Assembly (NCBI GenBank): GCA_010909165.1
Contig: MU008209.1
Location: 394,919-458,918 of the forward strand
Length of the DNA stretch: 64,000 bases
Source of the DNA: Anthoceros angustus
Taxonomy: Eukaryota > Plantae > Anthocerotophyta
Direction of reading: 5' to 3'
Part shown: piece after piece, positions 5,385 through 56,324 of the stretch
Layout of the letters: each line of letters opens with the position of its first letter
Position numbering within the stretch: position 1 is the stretch's first letter
Translations under genes and position numbers: made by a program
Notes under the pieces: generated by a model
What the model was told of the DNA's origin: nothing
The model's database searches: none
The model's input: only the letters and a program-made list of their open reading frames with translations

Positions 5385-6155
5385 ACACTTGCTCTTTGTT
5401 TTCTTGTGCATCCTCGTGCATCTAAGTAGCTTATCTAGGAGACACTTTTTAATCTAGCATTTGCCTAGATGGATTGTGTTTATCCTAGAATTGCTATCTT
5501 TGCATGCATTCCTTTTATGCTAACATTTCTCTTCTAACAATGCTTTTATGCACTAATTCTTTGTCCTTCCTCCATGGATTTGTGTTCCCTTAGAAGGAGG
5601 AGGCATAGAGTTAAGAAGAGAGGTAGTCCCGCAAGACAATAAGAACAAATTAGGAGTCCAACATATAGAAGCAATAGAAGACAACAAGCTATAGAGGGAG
5701 AGATAGAAGAAACCTCCTCTTGTATAGCAAACTTCATTGCATCTATCTTAATTTCTAAACCAGATCAAGGGAAGTTTGTCATGTCAAGCTAGCTAGACGT
5801 GATTTGCTAGAAGTTTTTAGCCCAATTCACGTCAAGGCATTAGAATTAGCTCTCCAACATATCCCAAACTTGAATGCTGGTATTAGTACTCCTTTATCTT
5901 CTAGTCTCAAGACAAAATAGCATAGAAACTCTTAGATTTCAAGAAATTGATAGTCAATTAGCAACTCTTAGAATCCAATCTTTGATCTTAAGGGAGAATT
6001 ATCTGAATTAAGGACAAAATTGTCTATTCTCTCTAAGGTTGATAATGCGCAGATTTGAGAGCATGCTATCATCATCCGAATCGATTATGATGCAAGAGAA
6101 GAGTTTCGTGCAATAGAGAAGATGAGGTCAGGCCTAGTCCTCTAAATCACCTACA

Positions 6156-9100
6156 ATGGCTGGAGTGATCAATGATGAAGAACAAACTGCTCCTAATTCC
6201 CCATTGGGTAATGATAATGCTAACACTTCATTGCATTATCATTATTGCTTCAAAGAGAAAGATAGATTCAATGGAAGGGATTATGACATCCGGTCATTGA
6301 GAATGCGAGGAGCTTTGCGGCAAAGAGACCTTTGGGGCATCGTCGATGGATCAATTCCAAGGCCACACGCCCGATTTGAACGTGAACTTCAACCTTCCGG
6401 ACGCTGTGACGAGAAGGCACAAGATTTATTGGTCTGGACTTTCTCAACATATGGTGAGACATGTCGCACGCAAAGACCTCCAAGGATATGTGGACTCACC
6501 TTGCTCAATTATATTCATCTCGAGATGTAATGAGTATTGTTGCGCTTCACGTAACTTCCGCAACCTCTCAATGAAGGAGTCCGACACCATCGAACATCAT
6601 GTTAATGCAGATTGGCACGATCCCATTTGGAATCTTCAATGGCGTACCTATCTCGAGATGGAGGCTTACGTCATTCTCTTATCTTCATTGCCACCTTCTT
6701 ATAGGGCTTTCATTACAACTCAAAATGCGTGATTCGCAATGTCGAAAAAGCTGCAGATGAAGATCCAAATGAAGAGCCGACATCGTGTTCGAACTTATTG
6801 GAGCATTGCTACGGAGGAGGCAAGCACGTCATCATCACTCCGAGCCAACAAGCAGTGATGTATTCACAAAGGGGTAGAGGAAGAGGACGAGGCCGAGGTT
6901 CTACTTTCCAACGACCCCATATCCCGCACATACTTTCCATGATGGAGAGGCATCTTCTTCAACACCGCAAGAGGTAACAAGAAGATCGGGATTATATGTA
7001 ATTGGTGCGTAATCCCAAATCACATGGAAAAGGATTGTCGAAGAAGAAGAATGGGAACCTCAAGGAGGCCCCACTGAGCTAACATTGCGGAAGAAACAAT
7101 CTTCCTCAACTCCAGGTGCTCACTGTGTGCTTCTTCCAAGCCCTCCAATACCTCATGGTACTTAGACAGGAGCTACTTCACATATTTGTTACAATGAAAC
7201 TCTTTTGAGTCTTACTCACCCAGGACATCCGTCTCCTCCGGAGATGATCACAACCTACCCATTGCGGTGTTGGTTGATTGTATTCAAGTGTGATTCGTCT
7301 TCATCTTCATCAAGTCCTCCATGTTCCTTCAATGTGCAAGAATCTAGTATCACCGCAAGTCTTTGTCAAGAACACACTAGTGGTGATCCTTTATGCGATA
7401 GTTGTCTTCTCTCATAAGTGATAGAAACTATACAATGCGTGCACTTTAGATGATGGTCTCTATAGATTGTCAAGACAAGTGGGAGCCACCCATTCTCGCT
7501 AATGTTGCCATTCCAAACCCTGACACCTACCCAAACCATGCTTTGGCATTGTCGCCTTGGTCATCCTAATAGTCAAAAATTAATCCAAATGTCTAAGGGA
7601 GCTTTATATAGAACCCTTGCCTTGCAAAGGTTGAACACCTACCTTGGTGCGAATCTTGTGTCCTCACTAAACGACATCAAGAGCCTTTCAAAATAAATCT
7701 CCACAAAGGGCCAAGTCACCTTTAGAGATAGTGCACATGACATTTGTGGACCCTTGTCTACACCCTCCTTTAGTGGTAGTAGATATTTTTGACCTTCACA
7801 GATGATTTCTCTCGCTTTGTCTTTTCCTACATCCCGAAAAACAAGAGTGATGCCTTTCACTTCTTCAAGGACTACATGAAATGAGAGACTTACGATCACA
7901 AACTCAAGACCTTACGTTCCGACAATGGTGGAGAGTTTACATCATCGAATTTGAGGATTTTGTCGAACAAGGTATAGCTCAACAACTTACTTGTCTACAC
8001 TCCTCAACAAAATGGCGAGGCCGAGAACAAGAATCTACGCCCAAGAGATCACAGGTTGCTTATTGGTACAAGCTAAGTTATCTAAGGCTTATTGGGCAGA
8101 CCTCCACAAAGAACCTATCTCATGAATCGATTGCCTACATCAGCTCAAGGTATGACTCCATATGAAGCATTCATTGGCAAGAAGCCTTCTATTGACCACC
8201 TTGAATTTTTGGATCCCGCATATGTTTTTATTCCCAAAGCATTGCGTAAGAAGTTGGATCCCAAAGCAAGTACACTTTCATTGGCTACACCAAGGTATCA
8301 AAGGTACAAATTGTTCAACCCTTCTACAAGGCAACTTTTATACGCGAGTGTTACTTTTCATGAGTCTTACCTCTTTTCCCCATGGAGCGATGATTGGTCC
8401 TCCTCTTGATGAGACCATTGACCCTTCTTATTTTTGATGATCCGATTATTTCACTCCATTTCCCATTCCCGCTTCGTGTTCCTTTAGTTGAACCTATTAT
8501 GCGAGGAGGAGGAGTTAGCATCTATTCCACAACACAACTCAACGACGAACTGATGTTGACATCCCAGCAGAGGCGCGCTTGACACTCATGATGATGAGTT
8601 TGATGACCCTCCGGAGGATGACATTGTGGAGCCAGCAGATCCTCGTTGATCCGCTCCTGGATGATGCACTGCACAAAGGTACAACCTTAGATCCCGACCT
8701 ACTATCTCGGTCCTGCAGTTGGAAGGAACCTCCTTTAGGATACCTAGCTTTTTGATGATCCTATACCCCTATATCACTTTATTCTCAAGTCTACAAGGCA
8801 ACTATAGACCCGAAGAACCTCTTACCTTAAAACAAGCTTTCTCTTCTCCCGAAAAAGACTTATGGAAGGTAGTCAGATTCGAATATAATTCCCTAGTTAA
8901 TAACTCTACATGGAATTGGTCAAACCACCTAGGGGTAGGAAGATAGTAACCAGCAAATGGGTATTCAAAATTAAAAGAAAAGGAGATGGTTCTATAGAAA
9001 GGTATAAGGCACGCCTAGTAGAGGTTTACACAAATTCTGGTCTAGATTACATACCTTGGGCCACTTATGCCCCAGTAGCCAAATTTGCCACACTTCGAAT

Positions 9101-9700
9101 GATATTTGCCTTATGTGCCCAACATGATCTTGAACTCCACATGATGGATGTTAAGACAGCATATTTGTATGGGCGCCTACAAGAGGAAATATACATGAGA
9201 CAACCCGAGGGTTACGAAGTTAAGGGCAAAGAAGATTGGGTATATGCCGACTCATCAAAGGTTTGTATGGCCTTAAGCAAAAAGAATTGGAACTAACCAT
9301 ACATGTACAACTTATTGGGAGAGGATTTAAGCAAAGCCGGTGATGCTTGTATGTACATCCTAATATCCGCAATGATATATTTTATCTTCTACTTTATGTT
9401 GATGATGTTTTTATGGCAACAAACTCCCTCACTCTCCTAGCGAAACTAAAGCATGGCTTAGGACTCTATTTGAGATGTCCGATCTAGGAGAAATGACATA
9501 TGCACTTGGTGTTAATATTATACTAAATAGAGGTAATAAGACTCTAAGTATAGTTCAAACCAAGTATATTAAGGAGAGTTTAGCTAAATTTGGACTTGAG
9601 GATGCAAAGCTGCACCCACACCTTTGCAAGTGGTGTTAGGCTTACCTCTATATGAGTCCCAAAATAGCTGAAAAAAGCTAGAAATGTTAGCGCTCCATAT
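6156..9700 (+). pseudogene. Copia 1 gag-pol (gag, CCHC knuckle, protease, integrase, RT), frameshifted
   Basis: FNGRDY...LWGIVDG gag motif, ICNWC...HMEKDC at about 6990, WYLD.GATSH at about 7160, LWHCRLGHPN, D.CGP...RYFLTFTDD, and RT motifs KWVFKIK...RYKARLV and MDVKTAYLYG. Confidence 0.9.
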
Positions 9701-10194
9701 CGACATGCTATTGCACTGGCGCGACCACTGACGGCGCACAATCCCGTGTTGTTGCAAGGGTCCGCTCCCAAGAGAATGATAGGCTCGTTGACACGTTTCG
9801 AATTTTACCCCATGTCGTGGACCTTAGATCTGAAAGTGCCAAGTACCCGCCTTCTGACAACTACTCTTAACGTCTACCGAAGCAGGCTTGTGGCTAAACG
9901 TTTAAGGACTTCGTCGCCCGTGCCTGATCGCCCGCCCCTCATCGCCGCTCCGCCGGGCCTCTCCGGCTCCGCCTCCCGAGTTCCCACCATGCTCCGGCCC
10001 GTCTGACGCCGGGCCGCCGACGGGAGCAGCAAGGGTCCCCGATCGCCCACCCCCCGCACACACCATCTCACGTTAGGGTCCGTCACCGTGACCTTGATCG
10101 GCCTCTCCGAGCTGCCGCCAGGACTCGTGACTCACGTTAGCAAAGACGCACAAGGGTCTACAACGAAACGCGCTTTCCACCCCAAGAGAAAGCG

Positions 10195-13100
10195 GGCAAG
10201 AAATGTATATCGCAACTCAAAAGTGGTCGATCGTCTCATCGACGAAGGGGTGTTTGATGAAATTATTTTATGGAAAAAGTTGCATATCATCTGTGTGGCC
10301 AAGCACCTTGGGTGCCTTCAAGATGGAGACAGAGTATCCTCAACACCCCACCCATTTGGGTGGTGCTAGATTCCGCATTTGAGGGCAAGGTAATTTAATT
10401 CAAGATCCTAGTGGTTCAAACCGGCAGAAAGGTTTCCTCGAGGAGGGTGCCGATGCCTCCGCCCTTGTTTTGGTATCCATGAGTTGTGGTGGGCGCCTCG
10501 CATGTGGCGCCCACCCCAGTTTTGGCCTCTGGGGCCTCGATAAAATAGCTTACTATTAGGCACTCTTCACTAGGGCACCTAGGACTTAATAATTAATTTA
10601 GTCCTTAGGGCTCTAGGTAGTTTCTTTAGTAGTTATTTAATTGGTTAGTTTACAACCACTTATTGGTTACAACTACCTTGCCTACATAAAGGCATGTACT
10701 TTCTATTATGAATGTAATGCAACACATATTGCTAGAGCTTGTGTATGATTCTCATCATGGTATCGAGCACACTTGCTCTTTGTTTGCTGTGCATCCTCAT
10801 GCATCTAAGTAGCTTATCTAGGAGACACTTTCTAATCTAGCATTTGCCTAGATGGATTGTGTTTATCCTAGAATTGCTATCTTTGCATGCATTCTTTTAT
10901 GCTAACATTTCTCTTCTAACAATGCTTTTATGCACTAATTCTTTGTTCTTCCTCCATGGATTTGTGTTCCCTTAGAAGGAGAAGGCATAGAGTTAAGAAG
11001 AGAAGTAGTCCCGCAAGACAACAAGAACAAATTAGGAGCCCAACACATAGAAGCAATAGACAACAAGCTATAGAGGGAGAGTAGAAAAACCTCCTCTTGT
11101 ATAGCAAACTTCATTGCATCTATTTTAATTTCTAAACCGGATCAAGGGAAGTTTATCAAGCTAGCTAGACGTGATTTGCTAGAAGTTTTAGTCCAATTCA
11201 CGTCAAGGCATTAGAATTAGCTCCAACATATCCCAAATTTGAATGGTATTAGTACTCCTTTATCTTCTACTTTATGTTGATGATGTTTTTATGGCAACAA
11301 ACTCCCTCACTCTCCTAGCGAAACTAAAGCATGGCTTAGGACTCTATTTGAGATGTCCGATCTAGGAGAAATGACATATGCACTTGGTGTTAATATTATA
11401 CTAAATAGAGGTAATAAGACTCTAAGTATAGTTCAAACCAAGTATATTAAGGAGAGTTTAGCTAAATTTGGACTTGAGGATGCAAAGCTGCACCCACACC
11501 TTTGCAAGTGGTGTTAGGCTTACCTCTATATGAGTCCCAAAATAGCTGAAAAAAGCTAGAAATGTTAGCGCTCCATATCGACATGCTATTGCACTGGCGC
11601 GACCACTGACGGCGCACAATCCCGTGTTGTTGCAAGGGTCCGCTCCCAAGAGAATGATAGGCTCGTTGACACGTTTCGAATTTTACCCCATGTCGTGGAC
11701 CTTAGATCTGAAAGTGCCAAGTACCCGCCTTCTGACAACTACTCTTAACGTCTACCGAAGCAGGCTTGTGGCTAAACGTTTAAGGACTTCGTCGCCCGTG
11801 CCTGATCGCCCGCCCCTCATCGCCGCTCCGCCGGGCCTCTCCGGCTCCGCCTCCCGAGTTCCCACCATGCTCCGGCCCGTCTGACGCCGGGCCGCCGACG
11901 GGAGCAGCAAGGGTCCCCGATCGCCCACCCCCCGCACACACCATCTCACGTTAGGGTCCGTCACCGTGACCTTGATCGGCCTCTCCGAGCTGCCGCCAGG
12001 ACTCGTGACTCACGTTAGCAAAGACGCACAAGGGTCTACAACGAAACGCGCTTTCCACCCCAAGAGAAAGATAGATTCAATGGAAGGGATTATGACATCC
12101 GGTCATTGAGAATGCGAGGAGCTTTGCGGCAAAGAGACCTTTGGGGCATCGTCGATGGATCAATTCCAAGGCCACACGCGATTTGAACGTGAACTTCAAC
12201 CTTCCGGACGCTGTGACGAGAAGGCACAAGATTTATTGGTCATGGACTTTCTCAACATATGGTGAGACATGTCGCACGCAAAGACCTCCAAGGATATGTG
12301 GACTCACCTTGCTCAATTATATTCATCTCGAGATGTAATGAGTATTGTTGCACAACTTCCGCAACCTCTCAATGAAGGAGTCCGACACCATCGAACATCA
12401 TGTTAATGCATTTCGATTGGCACGATCCCATTTGGAATCTTCAATGGCGTACCTATCTCGAGATGGAGGCTTACGTCATTCTCTTATCTTCATTGCCACC
12501 TTCTTATAGGGCTTTCATTACAACTCAAAATGCGTGATTCGTAATGTCGAAAAGCTGCAGATGAAGATCCAAATGAAGAGCCGACATCGTGTTTCGAACT
12601 TATTGGAGCATTGCTACGGAGGAGGCAAGCACGTCATCATCACTCCAGCCAACAAGCAGTGATGTATTCACAAAGGGTAGAGGAAGAGGACGAGGCCGAG
12701 GTTCTACTTTCCACGACCCCATATCCCGCACATACTTTCCATGATGGAGAGGCATCTTCTTCAACACCGCAAGAGGTAACAAGAAGATCGGGATTATATG
12801 TAATTGGTGCGTAATCCCAAATCACATGGAAAAGGATTGTCGTAAGAAGAAGAATGGGAACCTCAAGGAGGCCCCACTGAGCTAACATTGCGGAAGAAAC
12901 AATCTTCCTCAACTCCAGGTGCTCACTGTGTGCTTCTTCCAAGCCCTCCAATACCTCATGGTACTTAGACAGGAGCTACTTCACATATTTGTTACAATGA
13001 AACTCTTTTGAGTCTTACTCACCCAGGACATCCGTCTCCTCCGGAGATGATCACAACCTACCCATTGCGGTGTTGGTTGATTGTATTCAAGTGTGATTCG

Positions 13101-14610
13101 TCTTCATCTTCATCAAGTCCTCCATGTTCCTTCAATGTGCAAGAATCTAGTATCACCGCAAGTCTTTGTCAAGAACACACTAGTGGTGATCCTTTATGCA
13201 GATAGTTGTCTTCTCTCATAAGTGATAGAAACTATACAATGCGTGCACTTTAGATGATGGTCTCTATAGATTGTCAAGACAAGTGGGAGCCACCCATTCT
13301 CGCTAATGTTGCCATTCCAAACCCTGACACCTACCCAAACCATGCTTTGGCATTGTCGAATTGGTCAAACCACCTAGGGGTAGGAAGATAGTAACCAGCA
13401 AATGGGTATTCAAAAATTAAAAGAAAAGGAGATGGTTCTATAGAAAGGTATAAGGCACGCCTAGTAGTAGGTTTTACACAAATTCGGTCTAGATTACATA
13501 CCTTGGGCCACTTATGCCCCAAGAGCCAAATTTGCCACACTCAATGATATTTGCCTTATGTGCCCAACATGATCTTGAACTCCACATGATGGATGTTAAG
13601 ACAACATATTTGTACCGCAAGAGGAAATATACATGAGACAACCCGAGGTTACGTCAAAGGCAAAGAAGATTGGGTATGCCGACTCATCAAAGGTTTGTAT
13701 GGCCTTAAGCAAAAAGAATTGGAATTTAACCATACATGTACAACTTATTGGGAGAGGATTTAAGCAAAGCGTGGTGATGCTTGTATGTACATCCTAATAT
13801 CCGCAATGATATATTTTATCTTCTACTTTATGTTGATGATGTTTTATGGCAACAAACTCCTTACTCTCCTAGCCAAACTAAAGCATGGCTTAGGACTCTA
13901 TTTGAGATGTCCGATCTAGGAGAAATGACATATGCACTTGGTGTTAATATTATACTAAATAGAGGTAATAAGACTCTAAGTATAGTTCAAACCAAGTATA
14001 TTAAGGAGAGTTTAGCTAAATTTGACTTGAGGATGCAAAGCTGCACCCACACCTTTGCAAGTGGTGTTAGGCTTACCTCGATATGAGTCCCAAAATAGCT
14101 GAAAAAAGCTAGAAATGTTAGCAGTTCCATCTTATTAGCATGGCGCGACTGGCCACGCCATAGCGCACAATCCGTGTTGTTGTAGCAAGGGTCCGTTCCC
14201 AAGAGAATGATAGGCTCTTGACACGTTTGACCGATTTTACCCCATGTCGTGACCGCTTAGACAGTGCGCTGCGGCAGCAGTTCTACGACTAACTCTTAAC
14301 GTCACCGAAGCAGGCCGTGGCTAAACGTTTAAGGAGACTCGTCCGCCGATCGCCGTCCCTCATCCGCCGTTCGCCGGCCTCGTCCGGCTCTTCACGCCTC
14401 CCGAGTTCCCACTCATGCGTTGGCCCGTCTGACGTCGCGCCGCCTGACGGCAGCAAGGGTCCTCGATCGTCACCCCGCACACCATCTCACGTTAGGGTCC
14501 GTCACCGTGACCTCGATCGCTCCGGAGCTGTCGACCTTTCGATGACTCGGACTCACGTTAGCAAAGACGCACAAGGGTCTACAACGAAACGGTTTCCACC
14601 CAAGAGAAAG
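10195..14610 (+). repeat. Mosaic of duplicated segments of 4775-10195, including a duplicated 5' LTR plus PBS at about 10539-10768
   Basis: 10195-11265 matches 4775-5900; 11265-12069 matches 9380-10195; 12069-13355 matches 6260-7555; 13355-14610 matches 8915-10195. Confidence 0.85.
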
Positions 14611-15248
14611 ATGCTTTACTAGAGCAGCGCCCTCTTATACTACGCCCAAGGGCGTCTTTATTACACTCCTATTCGAAATGGTAGCCACCAAGATGCCCTA
14701 GCCTACTATTTCCTTCCTAACCGCTATCTCGGCCGGTGATGGGTCCGGAGTGTTGGTTTCGCCTCGGCGCCGATGACCCAATCCCGTGCCCTGACACTTG
14801 CGGCGCACCCAATCGGATGATCCGCGAGGCGGGACCCTTCCCCTTCCCGAGACCCGCCGTTGGAGCTCTGCGTCGGTGATCCGACAACCGTGGTAACCAC
14901 CACATCCTCCTCTCTCGCCTCCAGTGGATCCCCGCTCAGGGGCCACCGGTTGGCTCCACCGAGTGTGGCAGACCTCTCTCCCTCCCGAGTGGGACTCCTG
15001 GGGTGCAGGTCTCGACTCGGGTCCGATCCTCGGTCGGCCTTATTTCGAGTCCGGACCTCGGGTCCGGTCGTCGGGTTCGGACCTCGAGGTCCGACTCATT
15101 ACTGTGGTCCGACCTCTACTGTGGTCCGACGTCCGGACCCCACCACTGACCCTCGATTGTTGGGGGTCCACCCTCGCTCACCGGACCCCCATCCTGGCTT
15201 GGGTCCGGTTGGTTTCCTCCTTCCCCACCCCTTTCGGGGCCCTCTGTC
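14140..15248. mobile_element. GC-rich unclassified segment, probably the distal part of element X
   Basis: Lies between the copia RT break and family A. Contains GGTCCGA(CCTC) short repeats at about 15040-15140. The CTGTC/CTGAC flanks of family A suggest continuity with 36161 onward. Confidence 0.4.
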
Positions 15249-15627
15249 GTGAAGCGTGAAAAGTTTGGGACTACCGGTGTCCCGAGTATGAGCTTGTCCC
15301 GGGGCAACTCCACCAATCTTAGCTGTGAGGACTATGGGATCGCCTTGTCCCATAGTGAGGCCCGCCCCTTGGTGGGACCGCCATGTCCCAAAGTTGGGAT
15401 GGCCCCTTGCCCTTGTGGATCGGGTAAGGTATCCGTCGCAGCTAAGGGGAACGCCATGTCCCATGGCCGGGACGATCTGGTTGCGCCCTTGCCTCCTCGT
15501 TACTAGCCCACTTATTGTCACTCCAGATTCGGACTCGTAGAATGGGGCCAAAGTTTCGGTCCGAGTATGAGTCCGCCACAAAGGGTCCCCTTGCAAAGAA
15601 CAAAATATGCTGGGAGAGCATCTGCTC
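15249..15627 (-). repeat. Family A repeat B2
   Basis: Same ends as 16410-16786 (GTGAAGCGTGAAAAGTTTGGG...GGGAGAGCATCTGC); the GC-rich middle is diverged. Confidence 0.85.
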
Positions 15628-16405
15628 AAAGGGATCCCCGCGCAATGGCAGGAATCACGAGATTTCTTGAAGATTTCTTGGCTAGACCAGTTTCTGGCTG
15701 GAGCCAGAATCAAGCCTTCCTTGTAGGGAAGCACACGAGCAAAACACAGATCCGATCGATCTTGGATTTCAGATTGCAAGGGTTCACAAAGTGCTTTCCT
15801 CCCTAACCCAAGGCGCTGCACGATTTGAAGACTACCCTCATTCCTTGCCCCACGGTCCTCAATCCCGCCGCCATCATCTCCATGCTCCGCTCGATTCCCA
15901 CCGATGTTTGCGCCATGATGCGAAGCAACCCTCACGCTTGGTGGTGCTCCTCCCACGTTGATCGGTGCCTTGTTTGGGTTTGGGTCCAGCTTTGGTTTCA
16001 CACCTAAACTAAGTGGCTTTTCTAGCCTACCTAGTTATCCGCTCATAACGGATCTATTTCTATAACTAGTATTTAAAGGAAATGAATCCTTGGACTATGG
16101 GCCAATCAAAATAAAGGATATGTTTTCATGTCCTTGGTTAATGAAAATGCCTAACCAAACGTAGTATAAAAGCAAGCATACATCGAGTTCACATTCTTTG
16201 CATGCGCCCTTAGTTCTTGTGTCTGACGTTGGGCTGGGCTGCATTTCCAGCCTGTGGACTGCATGTCCCATGGCTGGGATGGCTGTCCGGTGTGGACGCC
16301 ATGTCCCATGGGGGATCCGGCTATCCGGCTGGACTACCATGTCCCATGGCGATTCTGTCCTTGGGGATCGCCATGTCCCATGTCTAGGACGGTCTTGGCA
16401 ACCTC
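15628..16405 (-). repeat. Family A repeat A2
   Basis: Matches 35309-36160 from AAAGGGATCC to GGTCTTGGCAACCTC. Confidence 0.9.
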
Positions 16406-16409
16406 GGCC

Positions 16410-16786
16410 GTGAAGCGTGAAAAGTTTGGGACTACCGGTGTCCCGAGTATGAGCTTGTCCCGGCAACTCCACCAATCTTAGCTGAGGACTATGGGGTGCC
16501 TTGTCCCATAGACAGCCTGCAGCCCCGGCTGGACTGCCATGTCCCAAAGCTGGGATGCCGGCAGCCCCGGGACCGCTGTCCTGGCTGTCGAGTCCGGCAG
16601 CCTGGCTATGGGCCATGTCCCATGGCGATAGTCCTGTTGCAGCTCCTTGCCTCCACATTAGCCCACTTATCGTCACTCCAGATTCGGACTCTGTAGCTGA
16701 ATGGGGCCAAAGTTTCGCACCAGTATGAGTCCGCCACAAAGGGTCCCCCTTGCAAAGAACAAAATATGCTGGGAGAGCATCTGCCC
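16410..16786 (-). repeat. Family A repeat B1
   Basis: Copy of B2, adjacent to the end of the PHD ORF. Minus-strand TGGGGTAGGG at its inner border (16784-16793). Confidence 0.85.
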
Positions 16787-16809
16787 TACCCCAGCCATTG
16801 AAGCTTGTG

Positions 16810-18010
16810 TCAGAATGTCGAGGCTGCCGGAGAGGCAGCACATAGTGGACAATACCACGCAGTTCCCGGCACCCTGAGAGAGGCGCAAAGCAAAATAGGT
16901 GGTACCACGTGCTGGTCGCACAGATCAGCGTGGTCGTCTCCTCCGCAACTGCATGGGTAATCACCGAGGTACCCAATCACGACAATGGTTGGATCCAGTT
17001 GGGCAAATGGCAAGGCGCACAATTTTTCATGTGATCCTTGGTGGTACGTCCATCTGATCCTTGTAGCACTAGCACACCATTGTCCTTGACCTCCGAACTC
17101 GCAACATGTCGACGTGGTGGTGTCAAGGGTGTCTCCCACTTGCTTCGCAAGCAAAACAAAGTCCCACCGAATTTCTTGAGCTTGGGTCTGAAGCTGCCGC
17201 TGCGAGTGTGGGCATATCTAAGGGTGTCCCGATGTTGGGCAATCCTCAAATTAGCCATGGCCATCGGCATGGCTTGTCAAACAGTGCACGCCCGACCGAT
17301 GACCGTTGCCCAAATTGCTGGATCATCCAGATCCACTACCTCATAGAGTTGCTTGGCAATGGAGCTAGGCGGCATGGGTTCCCTCCCAAACAGCAAGAAG
17401 TAGGGACTGAAATGTGCCAAGGAGGCATGCCGACTCACACGGTAGCCCATGGCGATGTAGGGAAGAGCCAAGTCCCACTCTGTCTTTGGCATTTGAAGGC
17501 AGAGCTTCCTTAGACCCTTCTTGATGGTCTGTACCATCCGTTCAGCCAGGCCATCAGCCTGAGGATGGTCTCGGCTGGTCCTACGATGGTCGATGAGCGC
17601 TGTGTCCAGCAGGTCTTGGAATTCCCCTCGAAATTCAGACCCCTGATCCGTCAAGCACTCGGAGCAGCTCCCAAAGCGACTCAACACATTGTGAAGAAAG
17701 GCCTGAGCGGTGCTTTTGGAGCTCTTGTCCGGCAGGGCCACCACCTCTACCCACTTGGAGAAGTGCTCCATCATGACAAGAATGTACACGTTCCCTCGTG
17801 GTGTCTTGGGTAGTTCACCCAACAAGTCACAAGACCACCTAAAGAACAGCCCCATGATAGGCAAAGGGTGTGAGGGTTACGGATGGTGAAGGAGGTCTTC
17901 ACTGTCAGCCCTTGCAACAAAGCCACCGCTTGACTTGGGCGTACATCCCTTGCCAATGGAAATGTGGGAGGAGCAAACTGTAAGTACGCTTGACTCCAAA
18001 ATGGCCTGTC
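16810..18010 (-). pseudogene. Family A integrase (H2C2 zinc finger, DDE core) with degenerate C-terminal PHD finger
   Basis: GHFGVKRT, WSCDL...EHFSKWVEV...TDQGSEF...PQADGLAERMVQTIK, and C-terminal YPC...WYCPLC. Confidence 0.9.
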
Positions 18011-19543
18011 GTGCAAAAACAGCTGGACATCGGATAGCACAACATTTCGCTCACGCCTTGTGCATGTGGTAACACCACTAATCGACTACAAACATTTGCA
18101 AAGAACGTGACATGTCATGATCATACTCAACTACGACCCGAATGCACATCCGGCCGAGAGCTGATTAGAAAAGAAAACAATAATCCTGCTAAATTCCCAT
18201 CAAAATGCCTCATTCAATCGCCTATCACCGATCAAACGCGTGAGTTTGAGAGTTCACAGAGCCGGACATAGTGCCGCAACCCAAAACCAAGTGTCGACTC
18301 GGACATCCGTGATCGAAATTCCCAAGCAAGCTTTCGGCATTCACTAATCTATAACGGCCAGAGCTCTCCTCCTCGCTCAAGAGACTCTCAAGACTATCCT
18401 AAGCCAAGCACGCTTGCCTCTTGTATCCGCGCCTAGCCTGCCGCCTCTCCGCCCCTCCCGCCATGCATCGCCTTCCATCCTTTTCCATGATTGCTTCCTG
18501 TCACTCTCACGCTCCCGCAATCTCCTCATGATCCGGCAAATCAATCGGTAATTTCACCACGACCTTCCCGAAAACTAATGGCTAACAATACATGACATTT
18601 CTAGATGTCAAGATATTACCGATATCCTCTCTCTATGTACATGGACTTGCCTCAACCAATGATCCCGACACGCGTGAAGATGACATATTGGTCGGCAAAA
18701 CAAATTGGACATCGGATAGCACAACATTTCCTCACTTTTGTTGTATGTGGTAACACCACTAATCGACTACAAACATTTGCAAACGTGACATGTCATGATC
18801 AACGGCTCAACTACGACCAATGCACATCCGGTGAGAGCTGATTAGAAAAAGAAAACAATAATCCTGCTAAATTCCCATCAAAATGCCTCATTCAATCGGT
18901 CTATCACCGATCAAACGCGTGAGTTTGAGAGTTCACAACAGAGCCGACAGTGCCGCAACCCAAAACCAAGTGTCGACTGACATCCGATCGAAATTCCCAA
19001 GCAAGCCATTCACTAATCTACAACGGCCAGAGCTGCCCCCTCCGCTCAAGAGACTCTCAAGACTATCCTAAGCCAAGCACGCTTGCCTCTTGTATCCGCG
19101 CCTAGTCGCCTCTCGCCGCCCCTCCCGCCATGCATCGCCTTCCATCCTTTTCCATGATTGCTTTCCTTGTCCTCACCAGCCTCACAATCTCCTTGTTATG
19201 ATCCAAAGAAATCAATCGGTAATTTCGCCACGACCTTCCGAAAACTAATGGCTAACAATACATGACATTTCTAGATGTCAAGATATTACCGATATCCTCT
19301 CTATGTACATGGACTTGCCTCAACCAATGATCCCGACACCGTGATTCCAAAGATGACACCGTGCAAAACAAATTGGACATCGGATAGCACAACATTTCGC
19401 TCACACAGGTATGTGGTAACACCACTAATCGACTACAAACATTTGCAAAGAACGTGACATGTCATGATCAACCAACTACGACCAATGCACATCCGTCGAG
19501 AGCTGATTAGAAAAAGAAAACAATAATCCGCTAAATTCCCATC
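18011..19543 (-). repeat. Family C 3' repeats: B3 18011-18201, A3 18202-18685, B2 18694-18879, A2 18880-19358, B1 19361-19543
   Basis: About 680-bp periodic sequence. A units run AAAATGCCTC...GATGACA and B units run G(T/G)GCAAAA...AAATTCCCATC. Confidence 0.9.
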
Positions 19544-19581
19544 CCCATAAGCCAAGAGAAGGCCAACACGAGAATGCTGGT

Positions 19582-20800
19582 TCAACTAGAACTGCCAGGA
19601 TCCCAAAGAGGTCTGGAGCTGGTCTCTCCATTACACTGAGCACAATACCACAATCCTTCAGGCACCTCTGTTAATGGCGGAACAAGGCAAAACAGATGAA
19701 AGCCTCCATTACAACCATCACAAAGCAACATGAGCTCAGGGTCATCCACCCGTTGACAAACTTGACATGGATAATCACTAGGTGGCACCCAATTCGCTGT
19801 GACAATCGTGGGATCCAGATTAGGTAGATGGCAAGGAGCACAATTGGTCATGTGGTCTTGTATAGTCCGCCATCGCTCCTCGAGCACCAACACACCTGGA
19901 TCAAGTTCCTTCACACGCAGTAATGCCGTTAGTAGAAGGTTCTAATGTGTCGCCAGCTTGTCGCTGAAGATAAACATAATCGCCAACATGGAACTTCCTC
20001 ATCTTAGGTCGAAATGCCCACTCGTGTAAGCATAACGTAAAGAGTCCCGATGTTGAGCAATTTTCACCGCCATCGCCATAGGCATGGCTCGCTAAACAAC
20101 ACCGCCTGCCGCCAACAACCTTAGCCCAAGTGGCTGGATCATCCAGCTGGACCACCTGGTTCATTTCCTTGGCAATGGCAACCGGCGGAACCGGATCTCG
20201 TCCAAACAAGAGGAAATACGGTGAAAAGTGAGCTAGAAGCGTGTTTGCTCATACGCACCATAGCCACATATGGCAAAGCCAAATCACTGTCTTAGACATC
20301 TTGAGCAACAACTTACGAGCCCTTGTTTGATGGTCCGAACAAGTCGCTCACCAAACCGCCGCCTTGAGGATGGTCTCGCTAGTGCGTGATCGATGAATGC
20401 AAGTCTCAGATCTTGGAATTCTCCCGAATGTGCCTTGATCCGTCAAACACTGCATGACTACCAAAGCGATCGAGAACATGCAAAGAAGGCCCGAGAAGTG
20501 CTTCGGATGACTTGTCCTAGAGCCACAATTTCGCCCACTTGGAAAAATGTTCCACCATCACCATCACATACACGCTACGAGGCGCCCGGCAAATCTCCTA
20601 TAAGATCACAAGACCATCGTAAAACAAACCCATAATGGGTAATGGCGATGGCTTGATGTTAAGACTTCACTCACACCGCTCGCAAAGACGCCACCACGCC
20701 ACGCACTTGAGCATACATCCCAAACCAATGGAAATGAGGAGACAATAAACTATATGTTCGCTTGACCCCAAAGTGACCCATGTCGAATGAGCACGCATGA
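19582..20800 (-). pseudogene. Family C integrase with intact C4-H-C3 PHD finger
   Basis: CQVCQRVDDPELMLLCDGCNGGFHLFCLVPPLTEVPEGLWYCAQC at about 19636-19770; DMGHFGVKR and FGRDPVPP integrase motifs upstream. Confidence 0.9.
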
Positions 20801-20959
20801 CCAAAGCTATTCATGTGGTGTGCACCAGCACGAGCCCGTAGACAAGGTGCGGATCAAATAGCCATCTTTCCAACGATACCGAGCTCCGTCAGATCCGATC
20901 TCGCTGAAGTGTGTGCAATCAGCAGAAACAATCCACTTTGAAGAAACCGTAAGATGATC

Positions 20960-22200
20960 ATCTTCCCATATGTCGCGATGTGCCCGAAATCGCAATGGTT
21001 CTCCATGTCCCACACATAGATTCCGCAAACATGTTGTCAGTAAGAAACTTGACCCGTGATCTCATGGTCCCGCTTAGCACACGCCTCATCCTCATCACGT
21101 AGTCGGGATGTCGAAAGCACATCCGCATTCTCGTGTGTGATGCCGTGGCGAACGACTTGGAAGTCATAATCCGCAATGTCATTGCCCACCTTGCGACCTT
21201 GCCACCGAGCTTAGTATTCGTCATAAGCCAACGTAAAGGCGATGGTCACCACCAAAGTAAATGGCCGACCATACAGATAAGGTCCGAAATGGCAAATGCA
21301 TCATGCCAAACACTCCTTCATAGCTAGGATAATTGCTCTCACCTTGTTGCTACGTGCATAAGCGATAACACGCTCATGTCCTTCTTCGTCGCCAGTAAGC
21401 CGGCTCCAATACCTAATCGACCTAATCCGTATGAAGCACAAATGGCTTCTCGAAGCCGGGCCATCACAGCGCCATCACTTTCTTCAACAATTCAAATGCT
21501 GCTAAGTCCGTCCAATCCCAAATCACGCCCGCGCAGAGGTTGTTAAGTGGTTTAGCAAGACGCTAAAATCTTGAATGTAAATCCGTAGTAGTTACACAAT
21601 CCCAAATAGGAGCGCACTGACACACCGAGAATGTGTACCTCTAACACCTTGAACCTTTGCAGGTGGCATGATACCGTTAGGCACAATCCTATGTCCCAAA
21701 TAGGCGACAGATCCATGCCCACACACTTAGGATGGCATTTGAGTCCCGCCTATGGAGCTGCAAAATAGATCCTCTAAATGCCTCAAATGAGCCTCAAAAT
21801 CCTTCGTGCACGAGCACATCATCAATATAGCAAAGCGATGAGCAGCCCGGACAATACCTTGTCCATGATACAGAAATGTAACAGTGCATTTCAAACCCAA
21901 ACGGCATAAACAACCATTCCCATAGCCGCGAGCCATGAAATGTCTTTTTATGTCTTCTTCAACCATTGGCACCGGTTGAATCCTTGCCGCAGGTATAGAA
22001 CAGAGAAGAATGCTGACTGTCCGATGCTATCGAATAGCTCCTCCGTGTGGGCATCGGATAACGATCTTGAGCCGCACGCATTGATCGGTCGATAATCACC
22101 ACACATGCGTCGTCTATAAACCCCGATCGCCCTTCTTAGGAGGAAGAAGCACCGTGCATAAGTGGATGGTCGAATCAATCTCGCCTCAGCCTCGCTTATC
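20960..22200 (-). pseudogene. Family C RT and RNase H, heavily frameshifted
   Basis: RMCGDYRPIN, LRQGFN, and TNTKLGGKVARWAM motifs. Confidence 0.85.
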
Positions 22201-22599
22201 GACTATTTCCCATTCGCAGATCGAGCTCGTAACGACGCCGGTAGATGGGCTCATTAGTTGTCACCGCACTCAACTTCATAACGCAAGTACCAAGGTCCTT
22301 CATCGAAAACGCAAAACAATCTTGATATGTTATCATAAGCAATCCGCTGATCATTTGTCAATCGGACCCATCTTCCACCGGAAATCAGCCACTCTTAGCC
22401 TCGATTGCTTCGCCGATAACGCAACGAGTCGCCAGATCATCACCGTCGGAAACGATGATCTCTAAAATGCATACTCCCCGCCTTCCGAAAAGGCATGAAA
22501 AGCTCGAAAAGGCGATGAACAAAGATCCGATGACACAAGCGCGATCGCCAATCGACAAAGCCGCAAAACCAGGACCAAAGAAAAGTTGAAAGCCAAACA

Positions 22600-23500
22600 G
22601 ATGTCGACGAGTGTCACAAAGATGTAAATCCATGGCACGACCCAGCAAAGACATCACGAGCAATAGAAATGCCGAGCGGCAGATCGTGAGTCGCAAACCC
22701 CATAATGCTCCCGCCTCGCCAGCGGGTTCCTCCCAACGCCGAGTCTCGAATGCAAGAATAATCCCGGCCTTCCACGATACGCATAAGACCGAAACTAACA
22801 AGTGTAGGCAAGGTACGTCGCGGATAACCCACCTCATTGGTAGCAAACCATGGGGCTTTCTCCGGTCTGAATCGTCGAGGAGAGTGATAAACTTCGAGCA
22901 CATCCTGTAATTGACGTTCAGCAGGACGAATAGTATGATGTAAAGACAATACAAGGATCACAACGAGCCCGCTTTGTCCAAAACTGCGAAGACGATGAGC
23001 ATAATCACGCACATGCATCAAAACCGAGGCGGGCCCAAAACATGCTGCACCAAATTGGCGTCATGGCGCACAGACAGCCGAGAATCTAGATGTGCAGGAG
23101 TGTTTTCCAGAGTGTAAACCACCGACGGATTACACTGCTGAAACTCATGCTGCAGCTGCACGAGAGGCAAGAACAACCCAGATCGCGAATCCTGTAGGCC
23201 ATCCCCAAATCCAGCTTGGGAGAACCCCTGGCATTCCCAACCCGCAACCACAAGGTCCACACGTCCTAAAGCTTGAACATGGGAGGATTGAATCAACAAG
23301 ATGTCTTGTGGCAGGGTAGTAAAAGCACAATTGCAAGCGGACTGATTAAATTGCTGGGGAAAACGGATGCACAATCGCCGCAAACGATGTGCGAATTTGA
23401 CGAGCCACTAAGCGCTTATCACAGTAATAACTATGAATACGCAATCCGCACGCAATGGCCTCCAAGCTGCAAATACCTCCAAACAACTCCACCAATACAT
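22600..23500 (-). pseudogene. Family C DNMT3-like C5 cytosine methyltransferase domain
   Basis: Motif I VELFGGI (23469-23492); motif IV VDLVVAGWECQGFSQAG..GLQDSRSGLF (about 23170-23265); motif VI LENT (about 23100); AHRLR..WT (about 22980-23010); IMGF and LLGRAMD (about 22625-22720). Confidence 0.85.
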
Positions 23501-23899
23501 GCCTCGATGAAAGGCCACGAAATAGTCACACGTGTGAAAGCAACTCCTGTGCAATCTGCCCAAAGGTGCGAGGCCAGCCCAGCCACGATACCGAACGCAA
23601 ATTGACATGATGTTGAGCCTCAACCGACAACGAGGGTGACCGACAATCATCTCATCAACAAGAGCACAAGCCTCCACCATCGAGTCGTGCGCCACTTCAT
23701 CGATAGTCTCATCAACTCGAAAACAACCATTGCTCATGCTGATCATCCTTGACCAACCGAGGAATAAACTGCACCATACAGACATGGCGACCAGCCAGCG
23801 ACACTTCCATGTCATCATTGCGGTGATGCAAATCAAGTGGAATGTAGGCCAACCGCTTGCCTCCTTGCTGCCAATCAATTATGTAAAAAGCTTGCTCTG

Positions 23900-24435
23900 T
23901 CCAATTATCAATACTGACCCCAGGTGGAAACAAAAACTCCTGGCACAAGAGTACATCATAATTGGTAGCAGAAACCGCATAACGAACTCGAGAGTCACAT
24001 CGGCGCACGGTCAAGAGCAATAGACATTGGAAACACTGTCTCACCCTAGATCGGCTCCACAGCTCCCATTGCTGTACGGATGTTCCAGGGAGAGTTGCGT
24101 AATGCTGATCCCATCAACTGCAATCGAGTGGCCAGAGTCTGACCAATAATAACTGGCTGAGCACCAGTATCGAACAACACCATACGAGGTGCAACACCAT
24201 TGATCGTCACATGACCAGCGGTATTGTTCACCAATGCATGATTGACCCGAACTTGCAGGCGATTTGTTGGTTGCACCAACGGATTGCCTTGAGTGGCAAG
24301 GGCCAAGTGTGAAACCATCACCGGTTTTCCAGCAGCAAGTGGCTCAATCCAATCCAGCTCACTGGTAGCTAGAGCATCAGCTAGTGCTGTCTCACCAGTA
24401 CTCGGCTTGTCTAACTCGACTATCACGGCGTACAC
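23900..24435 (-). pseudogene. Family C aspartic protease
   Basis: VLFDTGAQPVIIG. Confidence 0.85.
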
Positions 24436-24999
24436 TGAACCAAATGATGTAAAGGAAGCAACCTGCGGGCCCCTATTCCCACCTCCTCAAGAGAAAATAA
24501 AGGTACATGCACCGCTTGTAGCAATCCCTCCCACGTCATGGAAGACAAACGAATAGGTTCACCTCCTTGATCTCTCACGACTCACGCCCGATATGGCAAA
24601 TGGTCTCGAACCACGCAATGGCGGAATGACGCCAAAGGTACAATGGCAAACGACTTAGGCATGATCGCCCTAGCTTGTCGCAACGATACTTTTGCCGTGG
24701 GAGCCGAACCTCCGCCGTCATGCTGGCCACTCGACCTAACCAAGAGCAAGGTAAGTCTTCTAGCATACTAGATGTGTGCACAACGTGCTCGCCTGTAATT
24801 TTCTTCGCCTCACCATCTTGTGAGCCATGCAAACATGGTAAGGATCCCCATAATCTTCTCCCACACGTACATGCTCATCAGGAGAGTCACAAACCATAAC
24901 TCCTGCAAGTTTATCTTCAGACACCACGAGCGAAGCTCCTCCAGCAGGCTTGACTGCCAAACTAGCAGTAAGTGTACCCAACTGCGTTGTAAGAGCAGC

Positions 25000-26500
25000 C
25001 ACAGCAGTTTCCAGTGCGGTTACCTTACTAGCATTGGCCACAGTCTTCTGCTTAAACTTCTCCCGCTTTAATTTGCTCTTGAAACAGTCCCCGCAGATGT
25101 CCCCATTATAGTAGGAGACCCAATGGCAATCATGGATGCTGAAATTTCACCATCTCCACCCGCCTTTTGCACTCGACGCCAGAAACTGAAACAGATCGTC
25201 ACAACATGACCGTGACAAGATGTGTAATACAATGACTCCATCACGCATTTGCATGGAGACAATGTTCGGTGCTTCCACATCTGTTACACAACGGTGAAAA
25301 GTGAAAGCAGGTTCGCTTATCGGTTTAACCTGTGTAGGCTTTACCACTCCACTGCTGCCGACTCCCGTCGAGTTACTTTTGCTAGCGGCAAACATGTGCT
25401 GATAATGCGAGTACGCCTTCGAGTGTTTGTAAGCATGTCGAGAATGCTACCCTTTCGCCTCGCTCAAACACTGCTCAAGAGTGTATTGATCTCCGTACTT
25501 GTCAACAAGTGAAGTGAACAATTGGAAATGAAATAATGGCTCCGTCTCCAAAGCACTAAGAAACTTCGAGCACTGATCAATCAACATGCCAAGACTTCCT
25601 TAGCTTCAGAGACGACGGAAAAGCCATTTGAATTTTCCTTTCGTGTAAACGCAGACAACTATAATCTTCTCTGGGTCTTGAAAGGAAAAGCCTTCTCAAG
25701 AATGATAAAGAATTCCTCCACCGGATTAGCGTAAGCTGGAACCTCAATGTATTCTTCTATACCCGCCGTGGCCGCAGCACGCTCTTGGGAGGTCATACTG
25801 ATCACTCCTGGAGGTTTCACATTAGGTGACACAGTACTAGCAGCGATGGCGGCTTGATGAGCTGACACCGCTAATGCATGCAAATTATTATACGCCACCT
25901 GCAAGGCTTGCTGATAAGCAGGATTAGGAGTCACAGATGTAGCCAGCAATGCAGCTGCATGTGTCTCATATAGATCGAGAGCCTCATCTGCCATGTAACC
26001 AGGCAGCTGCTCAAACATGTAACGATCTGAAAAGCTATGCCATGCTTGAATTTCACACGGCTAGTAAGGAAGTTGAAATAGAGCTGAAATCACGAAAGTC
26101 TGCGTGCAGTCTACCAGAAAACTTATCCGATTTGGCTGGAAGAGAACCAAGACGCCATGATTTGAGTCACTCGAAGAACCGAGCTCGACCGCTAGTCGTG
26201 ATCTCACCAATGGTGACCAGCCAACCAGATACGGCCGTTGAAGATGTCTCTTCAGAACAAGCGCATCTCCCGCTTGCGGGTCTTCCACGGATGCTCACTC
26301 ACGTAATCGATGATTTTGCTCTTTTTGGAGGTGTGCGAGCCACATGCTTGAGCACCCTCCTTGAACGTAATTGGTGGTGCCTCACCACTCAGCTCATCCG
26401 GCGATCCGTCATGCATGTAAGAACAATGATCGAAACCGATTTCATCCAACAACTTGATTACCACATTCTGTTTCACGACATCGAATCCGGACCCTAACTC
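25000..26500 (-). pseudogene. Family C gag-like region with zinc knuckles
   Basis: MFEQLPGYMADEALDLYE, homologous to family A MFEQLSSYLADEALDLYE; Cys/His knuckles at about 25100-25300. Confidence 0.75.
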
Positions 26501-26628
26501 AAGGCTTTCTCAAGAACCGTAACAAGGTCCTCGCAGCTTGACATCAAGGTGATGACATATGCAACTAGGAACATAGCTCAAGAACCCTAGTTCTTTCTCA
26601 AGCACGACATCACACGCGCCGTCGGAGC

Positions 26629-26640
26629 AGTCTTGAGAGT
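26629..26640 (-). promoter_or_regulatory. Family C candidate self-priming primer binding site
   Basis: AGTCTTGAGAGT directly abuts A1 and is the exact reverse complement of 26828-26839. Confidence 0.7.
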
Positions 26641-27148
26641 AAAATGCCTCATTCAATCAGCCTATCACCGATCAAACGCGGTGAGTTTGAGAGTTCACAA
26701 TGTGAGCCAAACATAGTGCCGCAACCCAAAACCAAGTGTCGACTCGGACATCCGCATCGAAATTCCCAAGCAAGCTTCGGCATTCACTACATAGCGCCGG
26801 AGCTCGTCCTCCCTCCGGCTCAAAGAGACTCTCAAGACTATCCTAAGCCAAGCACGCTTGCCTCTTGTATCCCGCGCCTAGTCGCTGCCGCTCTCGTCCT
26901 CCTCCCTCCCGCCATGCATCGCCTTCCATCCTTTTCCATGATTGCGTTTCCGGTCTTGTCACTCTCACCAGCTCCCGCGAATCTCCTTGTTATGATCCAA
27001 AATCAACTGGTAATCACCACGACCTTCACGAAAACTAATGGCTAACAATACATGACATTTCTAGATGTCAAGATATTACCGATATCCTCTCTATGTACAT
27101 GGACTTGCCTCAACCAATGATCCCGACACCGTGATTCCAAAGATGACA
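26641..27148 (-). repeat. Family C repeat A1
   Basis: Matches 18880-19358 and starts TGTCATC on the minus strand. No B sequence on either side. Confidence 0.9.
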
Positions 27149-28700
27149 GCCCATGTCAGCTGGCACTCGATTTAATCAGCTCCCTATCGTGGTGGTGGCA
27201 CCAATCGCTCCAGCCCATTGGTCGCCTCCTCAAAGAATGCCCATCACGCCATTGATACTTGGCCGAATTCTTTCTTGCTCGTGCTCAATGGCTGATCCAA
27301 ATTGTCCTGTTTGGACAAATAGGAGAGTTTCGGAGTCTTCCTAGATGTCCTTGGACCTCCTGTCCCCAGCATATGTGCTCAATGCTAAGGACGCCCCATA
27401 TTGGATTGTCCCATACGGGATACCACCCAGCTTGTCAAAGCCACCATCGCAGCCACCGACACATGCTGCAGATCTCCATCATCTTGGTCCTGTCGGCTTC
27501 TGTAACATCTTCGCAACAGCACTGGGATTCCGAGAGAGAGTGTCCGCTTTGGTGTGTGACTCGCTGGTGCACCACTTGAAATTCATAGTCCTGCAAGATC
27601 ATGGCCCACCTTGCAAGCTTCCCACTCAACTTGGTGTTGGTCATCAGCCATTTGAGGGGCTGATGGTCGTGACCAGCGTGAAGGGCTTGCCATACTGTGT
27701 AGGCCTAAATGACAAACCGCCCATACAGCCGCTAGACACTCCCTTGGTAGCTACTGTAGTTAGCTTCACGATTGTTGCTGCGTGAAGCATACGCAACCAC
27801 CCGCTCCTTTCCATCTTCATCTTGTTGGGCTAGCACAGCCCCTAGGCCCAAGATGCTCCAATCCGTATGTACCACAAACGGCTTGGAGAAGTCAGGTCTG
27901 GCCATGACAGGAGCTTCCGTCAAGCTCAGTTTCAGCGTGTCGAAAGCTTGCTGGGTCTTCTCTGTCCAGGCCCAAACAACATCCTTCCGCAGCAAGTCAT
28001 TCAGCGGCTTGGCAATTCGGCTGAAGTCCCGAATGTATACTCGGTAATAGTTGCATAGGCCGAGGAAAGCTCGCAGGGCAGAGAGGTTTGTGGGCTCTCG
28101 CACCTGCAAGATGGCCTGTACCTTGGCAGCATGAGGCATCGCGGCACAACCCTATGACCAAGGTATGCCACGGTGTCCATGCCAAATTCACACTTGGCGG
28201 GTGACATGTCAATCTTCGCAATCTCTTGAACAGATCTTCCAGGTGCACCAAATGAGACTCAAAGTCCTCTGTGGACCAGGACATCATCAATGTAGCACAT
28301 GAGGTTCGAACGCAAGTACTATGTCCATTACGCTGGAAAGTCACCGGCGTTCTTGAAGCCAAAGGGCATCACCAGCCATTCCACAGCTGCTGAGAGCCGT
28401 GGAAGGCTGTCTTCTTGATGTCCTCTTCAGCAACAGGCACTGGTTGAAGCCTTGACGCAAATCCAAAATCGAGAAGTAGGTAGACTTGCCAATGTTGTCG
28501 AAGATCTCCTCCGTTGGCATGGGGTACCGATCTGGCTGTCACCGAGTTGATAGGACGGTAGTCTCCGCACATCCTCTTCTCTGTCCACATCCGTTGTGTC
28601 CTTCTTGGGAGGCATCACCGTGGCAGATAGTCGGAGCTAGAGGGACGAATGAGCCCGGCTTCAAGCAACTCTTGACAGTGCATCCACCATGTCCCACTCT
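27149..28700 (-). pseudogene. Family A RT, RNase H and start of integrase
   Basis: RMCGDYRPINSVT, YIDD, LRAFLGLCNYYR, VHTDWSILGLGAVLAQ...VVAYASR. Confidence 0.9.
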
Positions 28701-29139
28701 GAGCCGTAGCGCCTCAGATAGGCTCCTTGCTGGTCGATTGATGCGGAAGGTGGTCACATTGCATCGCTTCACCCCGCATGGAGAAGGCAAACAGCTGGTA
28801 TTGGAGCAAGGGCATGTATCTGCTGCCCTTGTGAGTTGGGGCCCCATGACCCAATCGAAAGTCTCAGACATAAGGCTTGGGTGCTGTGAATTGGGAGTCC
28901 CTACTAATCTCCATAGGATCCCCATACTGGACGGTCCCATACTCGGAGCATTGCCATGTCCACGAGCTTGATGCTGAGAATGCAGGGATGGCCATGCCAC
29001 CTCCCCCCGCATCAAGCCAATATGACCGTGGTGTATCCGGGAAGGGCAAATGGATGTGCACAAGAAGATGTGGGAAAAGGACCTCGGTGGGAGCTCCGGG
29101 AATGCCAACAGCTGAAAGGCCAGACATATGCTGATGAGC

Positions 29140-56315: not shown

Positions 56316-56324
56316 TCTTGCTTA

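Follow-up and report, generated by a model that had tools for sequence, protein, structure and literature searches.

The window analysed here, meaning the whole 64,000-nucleotide (nt) stretch at positions 394,919 to 458,918 of contig MU008209.1 of Anthoceros angustus (Anthocerotophyta; assembly GCA_010909165.1), holds two nested minus-strand Gypsy retrotransposons, the inner one being inserted in the integrase gene of the outer one. Along them, Pfam and tblastn matches place, in this order, a protease, a C5 DNA methyltransferase (deduced from a homologue in the case of the outer element), a reverse transcriptase (RT), RNase H, an integrase and a PHD finger, in reading frames that are frameshifted. 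The repeated sequences fall into two blocks, A and B: the outer element (36166-15245) reads A0-internal-B1-A1-B2, and the inner one (27148-18007) reads A0-internal-B1-A1-B2-A2-B3. Both have TGTC...GACA ends, with flanks GAGG/GAGG for the outer and GGGC/GGC for the inner element.

All features of the two elements are given on the minus strand. Next to its 5′ target site duplication GAGG (36167-36170, equal to 15241-15244), the outer element opens with A0 (35309-36166), which starts with TGTCA, ends in a T run and would correspond to the 3′ part of U3, R and U5 of the putative long terminal repeat (LTR). Inside A0 lies a self-primer site (35513-35524), the predicted 5′ end of the RNA, complementary to a 12-nt primer binding site placed directly after A0 (35297-35308). 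The 5′ part of the internal region (27153-35296) contains, frameshifted, a gag-like region, the protease, RT, RNase H and the start of the integrase; the methyltransferase probably lies at about 29.4-30.0 kb, to judge from a homologue at 63313-63999. The 3′ part (16794-18003) carries the integrase core (17280-17876, with D, D and E present) and the C-terminal region. It is followed by a G tract (16784-16793), the predicted plus-strand primer, inside which B1 starts at about 16786, then by B1 (16406-16786) with a damaged B1/A1 junction at its end, about 8 nt short, by A1 (15628-16405), by the terminal B2 (15245-15627) and by the 3′ duplication GAGG (15241-15244). The A repeat, leader and gag-pol frame of this element contain repeat arrays (31683-32046, 34190-34601 and 35944-36154) whose 48-bp and 79-bp units are based on GTCCC/GGGAC words, and a 590-bp tandem duplication is present at 30372-31578.

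The inner element is flanked on its 5′ side, within the outer integrase gene, by the duplication GGGC (27149-27152), and on its 3′ side by GGC (18004-18006), so that the duplication is of 3 or 4 bp. Its A0 (26641-27148) starts with TGTCA and ends in CATTTT. The self-primer site, again the predicted RNA 5′ end (26828-26839), is repeated in A1 (19053-19064) and A2 (18384-18395), and the 12-nt primer binding site again directly follows A0 (26629-26640). The internal region (19548-26628), also frameshifted, contains a protease open reading frame (24049-24486), the methyltransferase (23021-23407), RT, RNase H, integrase and the PHD finger (19585-19941). Next come the G tract (19538-19547), also predicted to prime the plus strand, with the start of B1 inside it at 19543, B1 (19359-19543), whose damaged junction with A1 is about 4 nt short of CA-NN-TG, A1 (18880-19358), and B2 with a noisy B2/A2 junction (18686-18879). 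An extra unit (18007-18685), made of A2 (18202-18685) and the terminal B3 (18007-18201), closes the element; it is either a real duplication or an assembly artefact, such as a mis-merged long-read overlap.

A first-pass annotation of this DNA had described how the repeats begin and end. The T run closing A was found again in both elements (35309 and 26641), and so were its TTT|GA joints, at 15628|15627 (outer A1/B2), 18880|18879 (inner A1/B2) and 18202|18201. The TG start, which it had given to A in the inner family only, is indeed present there (27148) and is found in the outer A0 as well (36166), six bases before the repeat border proposed at the time. B had been said to end in CAC; the terminal B of both families in fact ends in CACGACA (15245 and 18007), that is, in a canonical CA. 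Repeat copies within the window differ by 2-9% substitutions and many gaps, most differences being indels, as in uncorrected long reads, and fine detail was therefore taken from relatives.

A search with the integrase yielded 102 proteins, those with a name coming from Klebsormidium, Calypogeia fissa (77% identity), Closterium and Sphagnum; the top match by E-value was a K. nitens protein of 62% identity, a measure of similarity only. The alignment of these proteins was used to retrieve the best 80 of 534 metagenome matches, which are essentially one family. Two further loci, L081 and L082, belong to another family and were found in a prokaryote collection that gave 12 matches, 10 of them weak (E of 8e-8 or worse). 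Their bin is labelled as a cyanobacterial genome, which they probably entered as eukaryotic contamination. The contig of L082 is circular, its termini overlapping by 127 nt; we attribute this to identical repeats having been collapsed and do not take it as a sign of a circular molecule. A search of a viral collection found no relatives. In eight cases two loci are one and the same insertion, and each such pair enters the counts once unless otherwise noted.

Both ends were in view in 16 copies, 10 of which are A-internal-B-A-B and 6 A-internal-B; no BA-internal-BA or AB-internal-AB copy was found among them. Their 4-bp target duplications, read by eye, were exact in 9 copies, had one mismatch in 4 (13 of 16 with either), were absent in 2 and unreadable in 1. 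Methyltransferase matches were present in 14 of the 16. In the relatives P0081 and P0078, a weak methyltransferase match lies after RNase H and not between protease and RT, which suggests that this domain moved, or was gained twice, in some relatives. These copies bear on the idea that the layout came about when ordinary Gypsy elements were rearranged following their insertion, or through faulty assembly of a noisy window. The indel-rich window, with its near-identical re-duplications, and the extra A-B unit of the inner element would suit that idea. Against it stand ten independent short-read copies with the A-internal-B-A-B layout, most of them with target duplications, the internal-B-A-B arrangement in a fourth family (L081), the lack of either standard arrangement noted above, and the fact that the layout has been published for Klebsormidium (PMC5890265). 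Both are refuted as the origin of the layout, for which we find them hardly credible, and remain candidates for the extra A2-B3 unit only.

The published Klebsormidium case is KnitGypsy-Dnmt3 of K. nitens (de Mendoza et al. 2018, PMC5890265), a Gypsy element with a C5 methyltransferase in Pol, whose repeats are DIRS-type according to the legend of Fig. 4c, the paper giving DIRS-type as A-coding-B-A-B. The window elements share with it the Gypsy domains, the methyltransferase within Pol and this order of repeats; they differ in that relatives here extend to a liverwort (77% identity) and to metagenome loci. Primer sites, junction, target duplication and mechanism of KnitGypsy-Dnmt3 were not found in the text sections and supplement text of that paper that were searched, the word PHD does not occur in its main text, and a literature search for the name returned this paper only. 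We found no published mechanism for the A-internal-B-A-B Gypsy layout in a search that left most subscription journals and the Repbase reports outside.

The elements have the features by which Ty3/Gypsy elements are recognised: the protease-RT-RNase H-integrase order, a DDE core, TG...CA ends with a duplication of 4-6 bp, and a primer site with a purine tract. Troyka, restricted to animals, with CG...CG termini and 3-bp duplications in the pages of PMC12440569 that describe it, was rejected as an identity, the elements here having TG...CA ends and 4-bp duplications. The DDE integrase core gives a Pfam rve match, and its D, D and E align to those of the foamy virus enzyme, the second D and the E being one residue closer together than there (window 17280-17876); nearly all aligned relatives are ungapped there, so that the shorter spacing looks clade-wide. 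The C terminus of the integrase carries a PHD finger, not a chromodomain. No Pfam match to a tyrosine recombinase was found in 133 window frames, nor in 48 frames of three full relatives plus 6 polyproteins, with the reservation that a weak remnant could escape detection in broken frames. This matters for comparison with PAT, Ngaro and VIPER, described in the sections cited as A1-ORFs-B1-A2-B2 split direct repeats with a tyrosine recombinase (PMC6681497, PMC3266345). The window elements have the same split-direct-repeat layout; unlike those elements, they have a DDE integrase, TG...CA ends and 4-bp duplications, so that the likeness is probably convergent.

The 12 nt directly after A0 are, in both window families, the exact reverse complement of a site inside A (12 of 12 bases), a degree of self-complementarity reached in 0 of 1000 and 13 of 1000 null sequences. 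This pairing forms the outer, closing helix of the predicted folds in both families. In the metagenome family, a TATA box stands about 30 nt upstream of the self-primer site, and an exact match of at least 10 nt is kept in 13 of 20 loci. The complementary 12-mer of L082, of the fourth family, is a different one and is located 29 nt downstream of a TATA-like word. Paired sequences that covary and differ among all four families indicate self-priming of the Tf1 type; the RNA would thus start at the self-primer site and prime its own reverse transcription. The first-pass annotation had placed a primer site after A, which holds, its type being now recognised. No tRNA gene was found within the window, and a tRNA primer was set aside because self-complementarity accounts for the primer site. 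Tf1/Sushi and Tcn1 are described as self-priming Gypsy elements in the parts of PMC6317226 and PMC4600332 that deal with priming. The window elements resemble them in the Gypsy domain order and in a primer binding site that pairs with the predicted start of the RNA instead of with a tRNA. In Tf1/Sushi and Tcn1 the integrated LTR termini are the ends of the cDNA, and those that are chromoviruses have a chromodomain; the window elements, by contrast, have termini inside the LTR and an integrase ending in a PHD finger.

On the other strand of synthesis, the G tracts reported at the internal/B1 border lie where they had been placed: on the coding strand, here the minus one, TGGGGTAGGG occupies 16784-16793 and TGGGGATGGG occupies 19538-19547. 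They are at the border in location, with the correction that the tract straddles the B start and only its 5′ part is outside B (inner element TGGG|GATGGG, outer element TGGGGTA|GGG). Across the window, TGGGGNNGGG has 4 occurrences where 3.84 are expected, and 54 of 100 shuffled sequences contain at least as many, so that the motif by itself is not significant; inside the 20.9-kb nested element its only 2 matches are the two internal/B1 borders. A run of at least 5 G within 12 nt upstream of B1 was found in 60 of 62 related loci (a count in which the 8 duplicate pairs are included), compared with 3 of 7667 background windows. The proposal had been held open to refutation by absence of the tract from related families; the tract is kept in these relatives, and in the more distant L081 and L082. 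Its conservation supports a plus-strand primer before B, and we take this G run to be what primes the plus strand.

These two primer sites define the LTR as B+A, which is likely the true LTR, and they support the earlier view of the cDNA as BA-internal-BA. The standard steps of reverse transcription, applied here, would give a cDNA B′-A0-internal-B1-A1, whose ends are neither TG nor CA. Inserted copies are not bounded by two complete primer-defined LTRs, and their termini lie inside the LTR. We conclude that the elements behave like self-priming Gypsy retrotransposons but depart from the rule that the LTR ends are the integrated ends.

Where the termini come from is indicated by the B1/A1 junction. 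A 2-nt spacer between CA and TG, or decayed forms of these, was found in 32 of 33 distinct insertions, the exception, L078, being a deletion; in 29 of the 33 the spacer is GC or one of its deamination products AC, GT and AT. The palindrome GACAGCTGTC is also present in L081 and L082. Inserted copies end exactly at the CA and TG of the junction, the spacer being lost. Such a pattern would be expected if each strand were nicked after CA, leaving 2-nt overhangs on ends ready for integration. B exists in a long and a short version, set apart by a 15-bp tandem repeat; we discarded the idea that these mark alternative cut sites because L013 and L036, two assemblies of one insertion, differ there. 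In L078 (4484-4943), the B/A junction is deleted and the copy ends just short of the A end without B2; it was possibly inserted without integrase, or deleted later.

The A/B joint behaves otherwise: it was exact in 15 and imprecise in 16 of 31 insertions, compared with indels in 40 of 738 ten-column windows between paired repeats (p = 9e-12). Among the imprecise joints, 3 include the first base of the primer site, 1 has an additional G, 5 have lost 2 nt at a microhomology, and others show larger deletions. The B2 of L062 begins about 135 nt upstream, at a different GG|ATAC site, which is what a mis-primed plus strand would give. Imprecise joints never pair up on the tree (16 changes for 16 variants). 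Rare variants not explained by deamination were common to B1 and B2 21 times in 29 same-copy pairs and 76 times in 1624 other pairs, a comparison that left out L004 and L028 (truncated or broken); those common to A0 and A1 numbered 29 in 10 same-copy pairs and 57 in 180 other pairs. The sharing between B1 and B2 within copies means that B2 is the B of the 5′ LTR, moved to the right end. The imprecise joints and shared variants together support the earlier claim that the A/B joint is newly made by joining cDNA ends, an event that, on these patterns, would take place in every cycle.

They also bear on two other explanations. According to the first, the split repeats are inherited: the RNA runs into B2, and the A1/B2 joint passes from parent to daughter with no end joining, in keeping with the same layout in PAT, Ngaro and VIPER (as given in the cited sections of PMC6681497 and PMC3266345). 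This is contradicted by the heterogeneous joint, whose imprecise forms are ungrouped on the tree, and by the rare variants of B2, which recur in the B1 of its own copy some 15 times as often as in that of other copies; moreover, no column separates B1 from B2 save a trimming artefact, and the primer sites set the LTR as B+A. We consider inheritance very improbable and already largely refuted. According to the second, the joint is made by RT jumping from the A end to the B start and not by host joining, the integrase still cutting the palindrome. Single added bases (+C, +A, +T) and the 2-nt microhomology losses at the joint fit such jumps, as untemplated addition and template jumping would also give both. 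The large A deletion of L023 and the 8-nt loss of L054 look more like repair after resection. We regard such jumping as unlikely, if the least so of the alternatives.

The two forms of inserted copies were then considered. A-internal-B makes up 20 of 51 classified 3′ ends. Copies of this form and those ending in B-A-B are equally diverged (median end branch 0.071 and 0.073, p = 0.65), and A-internal-B accounts for 10 of 25 in the young half and for as many in the old half, L003 being excluded, which suggests that A-internal-B arises at or soon after insertion. Assembly collapse was judged an unlikely origin of A-internal-B, its divergence being the same as that of B-A-B copies.

The first-pass annotation had proposed that end joining makes a circle which a DDE integrase then opens at an internal B/A junction. 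Taken literally, host end joining would give a free two-LTR circle; with its two equal B/A junctions, both A-internal-B-A-B and A-B-A-internal-B are expected equally often. The imprecise A/B joints and the fixed palindromic junction agree with this scenario; two-LTR circles are reported to arise by end joining in the portion of PMC7197481 consulted, and the cited part of PMC4372172 has HIV two-LTR circles being linearised and integrated. The observed counts are 0 A-B-A-internal-B and 10 A-internal-B-A-B (p = 0.002), and B was found upstream in 0 of 22 distinct 5′ ends. The cut is thus biased to the 5′ LTR junction. Of the earlier proposal, action of the DDE integrase at the internal B/A junction holds up, and the free two-LTR circle does not; the latter we find improbable, as it survives only with an added bias, in which case it merges into the explanation we favour.

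The explanation we favour is that an internal attachment site together with cDNA end joining accounts for the A-internal-B-A-B layout, and we give it a probability of about 0.7. In outline, the RNA would begin at the self-primer site within A and prime its own reverse transcription, as in Tf1, and the G run before B1 would prime the plus strand, giving the cDNA described above. The integrase would nick the CA-NN-TG palindrome inside the 5′ LTR, producing integration-ready TG/CA ends, and the leftover cDNA ends would be joined imprecisely, yielding A-internal-B-A-B. The integrase may commit to the 5′ LTR junction, which would be double-stranded while the 3′ one awaits about 9 kb of plus-strand synthesis. 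A cut before LTR duplication, or annealing of B1 with B′, would give A-internal-B. Joining before the cut, in a circle held by the integrase, and joining after the cut or strand transfer fit the data equally well. Only slightly less confidently, we think that a green-plant Gypsy clade probably moved its integrase attachment sites from the cDNA ends to an encoded CA-GC-TG palindrome in U3, with the internal cut in the 5′ LTR, followed by joining, as its normal route.

Several points weigh against this explanation. Its kinetic account of the 5′ bias is conjectural, and all its mechanistic steps are deduced from inserted copies. The counts come from one family, through the best 80 of 534 matches, and two loci of another. 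Both B1/A1 junctions of the window are damaged, and the palindrome is not intact there; this is likely due to indel-rich read error, though gaps of at least 8 nt were seen in only 1 of 8 repeat comparisons. The tree is star-like, with 31 of 50 inner branches open, which makes the independent origin of each joint variant less secure. Finally, the overall fold z-scores are weak (-1.86 and -1.29), and the window families have no clear TATA box upstream of the self-primer site.

Precedents for an internal cut exist. HIV-1 integrase cleaves a palindromic 2-LTR junction in vitro (as described in the relevant part of PMC1905944), so that, as far as this source and the cited part of PMC4372172 go, retroviruses provide a case of an internal palindrome, formed by two attachment sites, that a DDE integrase can cut. 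The retroviral palindrome is the joint of the cDNA ends and serves a side route; in the window clade, by contrast, it is encoded inside the LTR, has a 2-nt spacer, is distinct from the end joint, and seems to serve as the main route. A second likeness is to circles of the IS3/IS30 type, in which two ends abut across a short spacer and a DDE enzyme opens this junction; these are bacterial DNA transposons, moving with no reverse transcription.

Other sequences of the window deserve mention. An inverted copy of the protease and methyltransferase region of the outer family, 79-90% identical and without a 5′ A of its own, lies at 62187-64000, where it interrupts the RT gene of an unrelated Gypsy element; it is possibly a chimera. 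A diverged (71%) fragment of the outer family's A repeat, at 56310-56901, adjoins an apparent Copia end repeat. At 4758-14612 lies a Copia element with near-identical re-duplications (9381-10192 equals 11259-12070 at 100%, and 6253-7563 matches 12062-13367 at 98%), which look like assembly artefacts.

In the textbook view, retroviral-type integration starts from the ends that reverse transcription leaves; in retroviruses, cutting at an internal LTR-LTR palindrome has been a contested side route. Internal cleavage is apparently the main route in this clade. Combined with end joining, it is a route that the papers searched do not describe for ordinary retrovirus-like elements, and it would explain a layout whose 2018 publication gave no mechanism. 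Split direct repeats can accompany a DDE integrase as well as a tyrosine recombinase, and LTR finders that require two terminal repeats would likely miss such elements. As each inserted copy records the outcome, in a fixed junction, a variable joint and two forms, the question can be tested in plants. If the explanation is right, this is a retroelement with a DDE integrase that needs end joining to make a fertile copy; failed joining or a premature cut would then leave dead A-internal-B copies behind.

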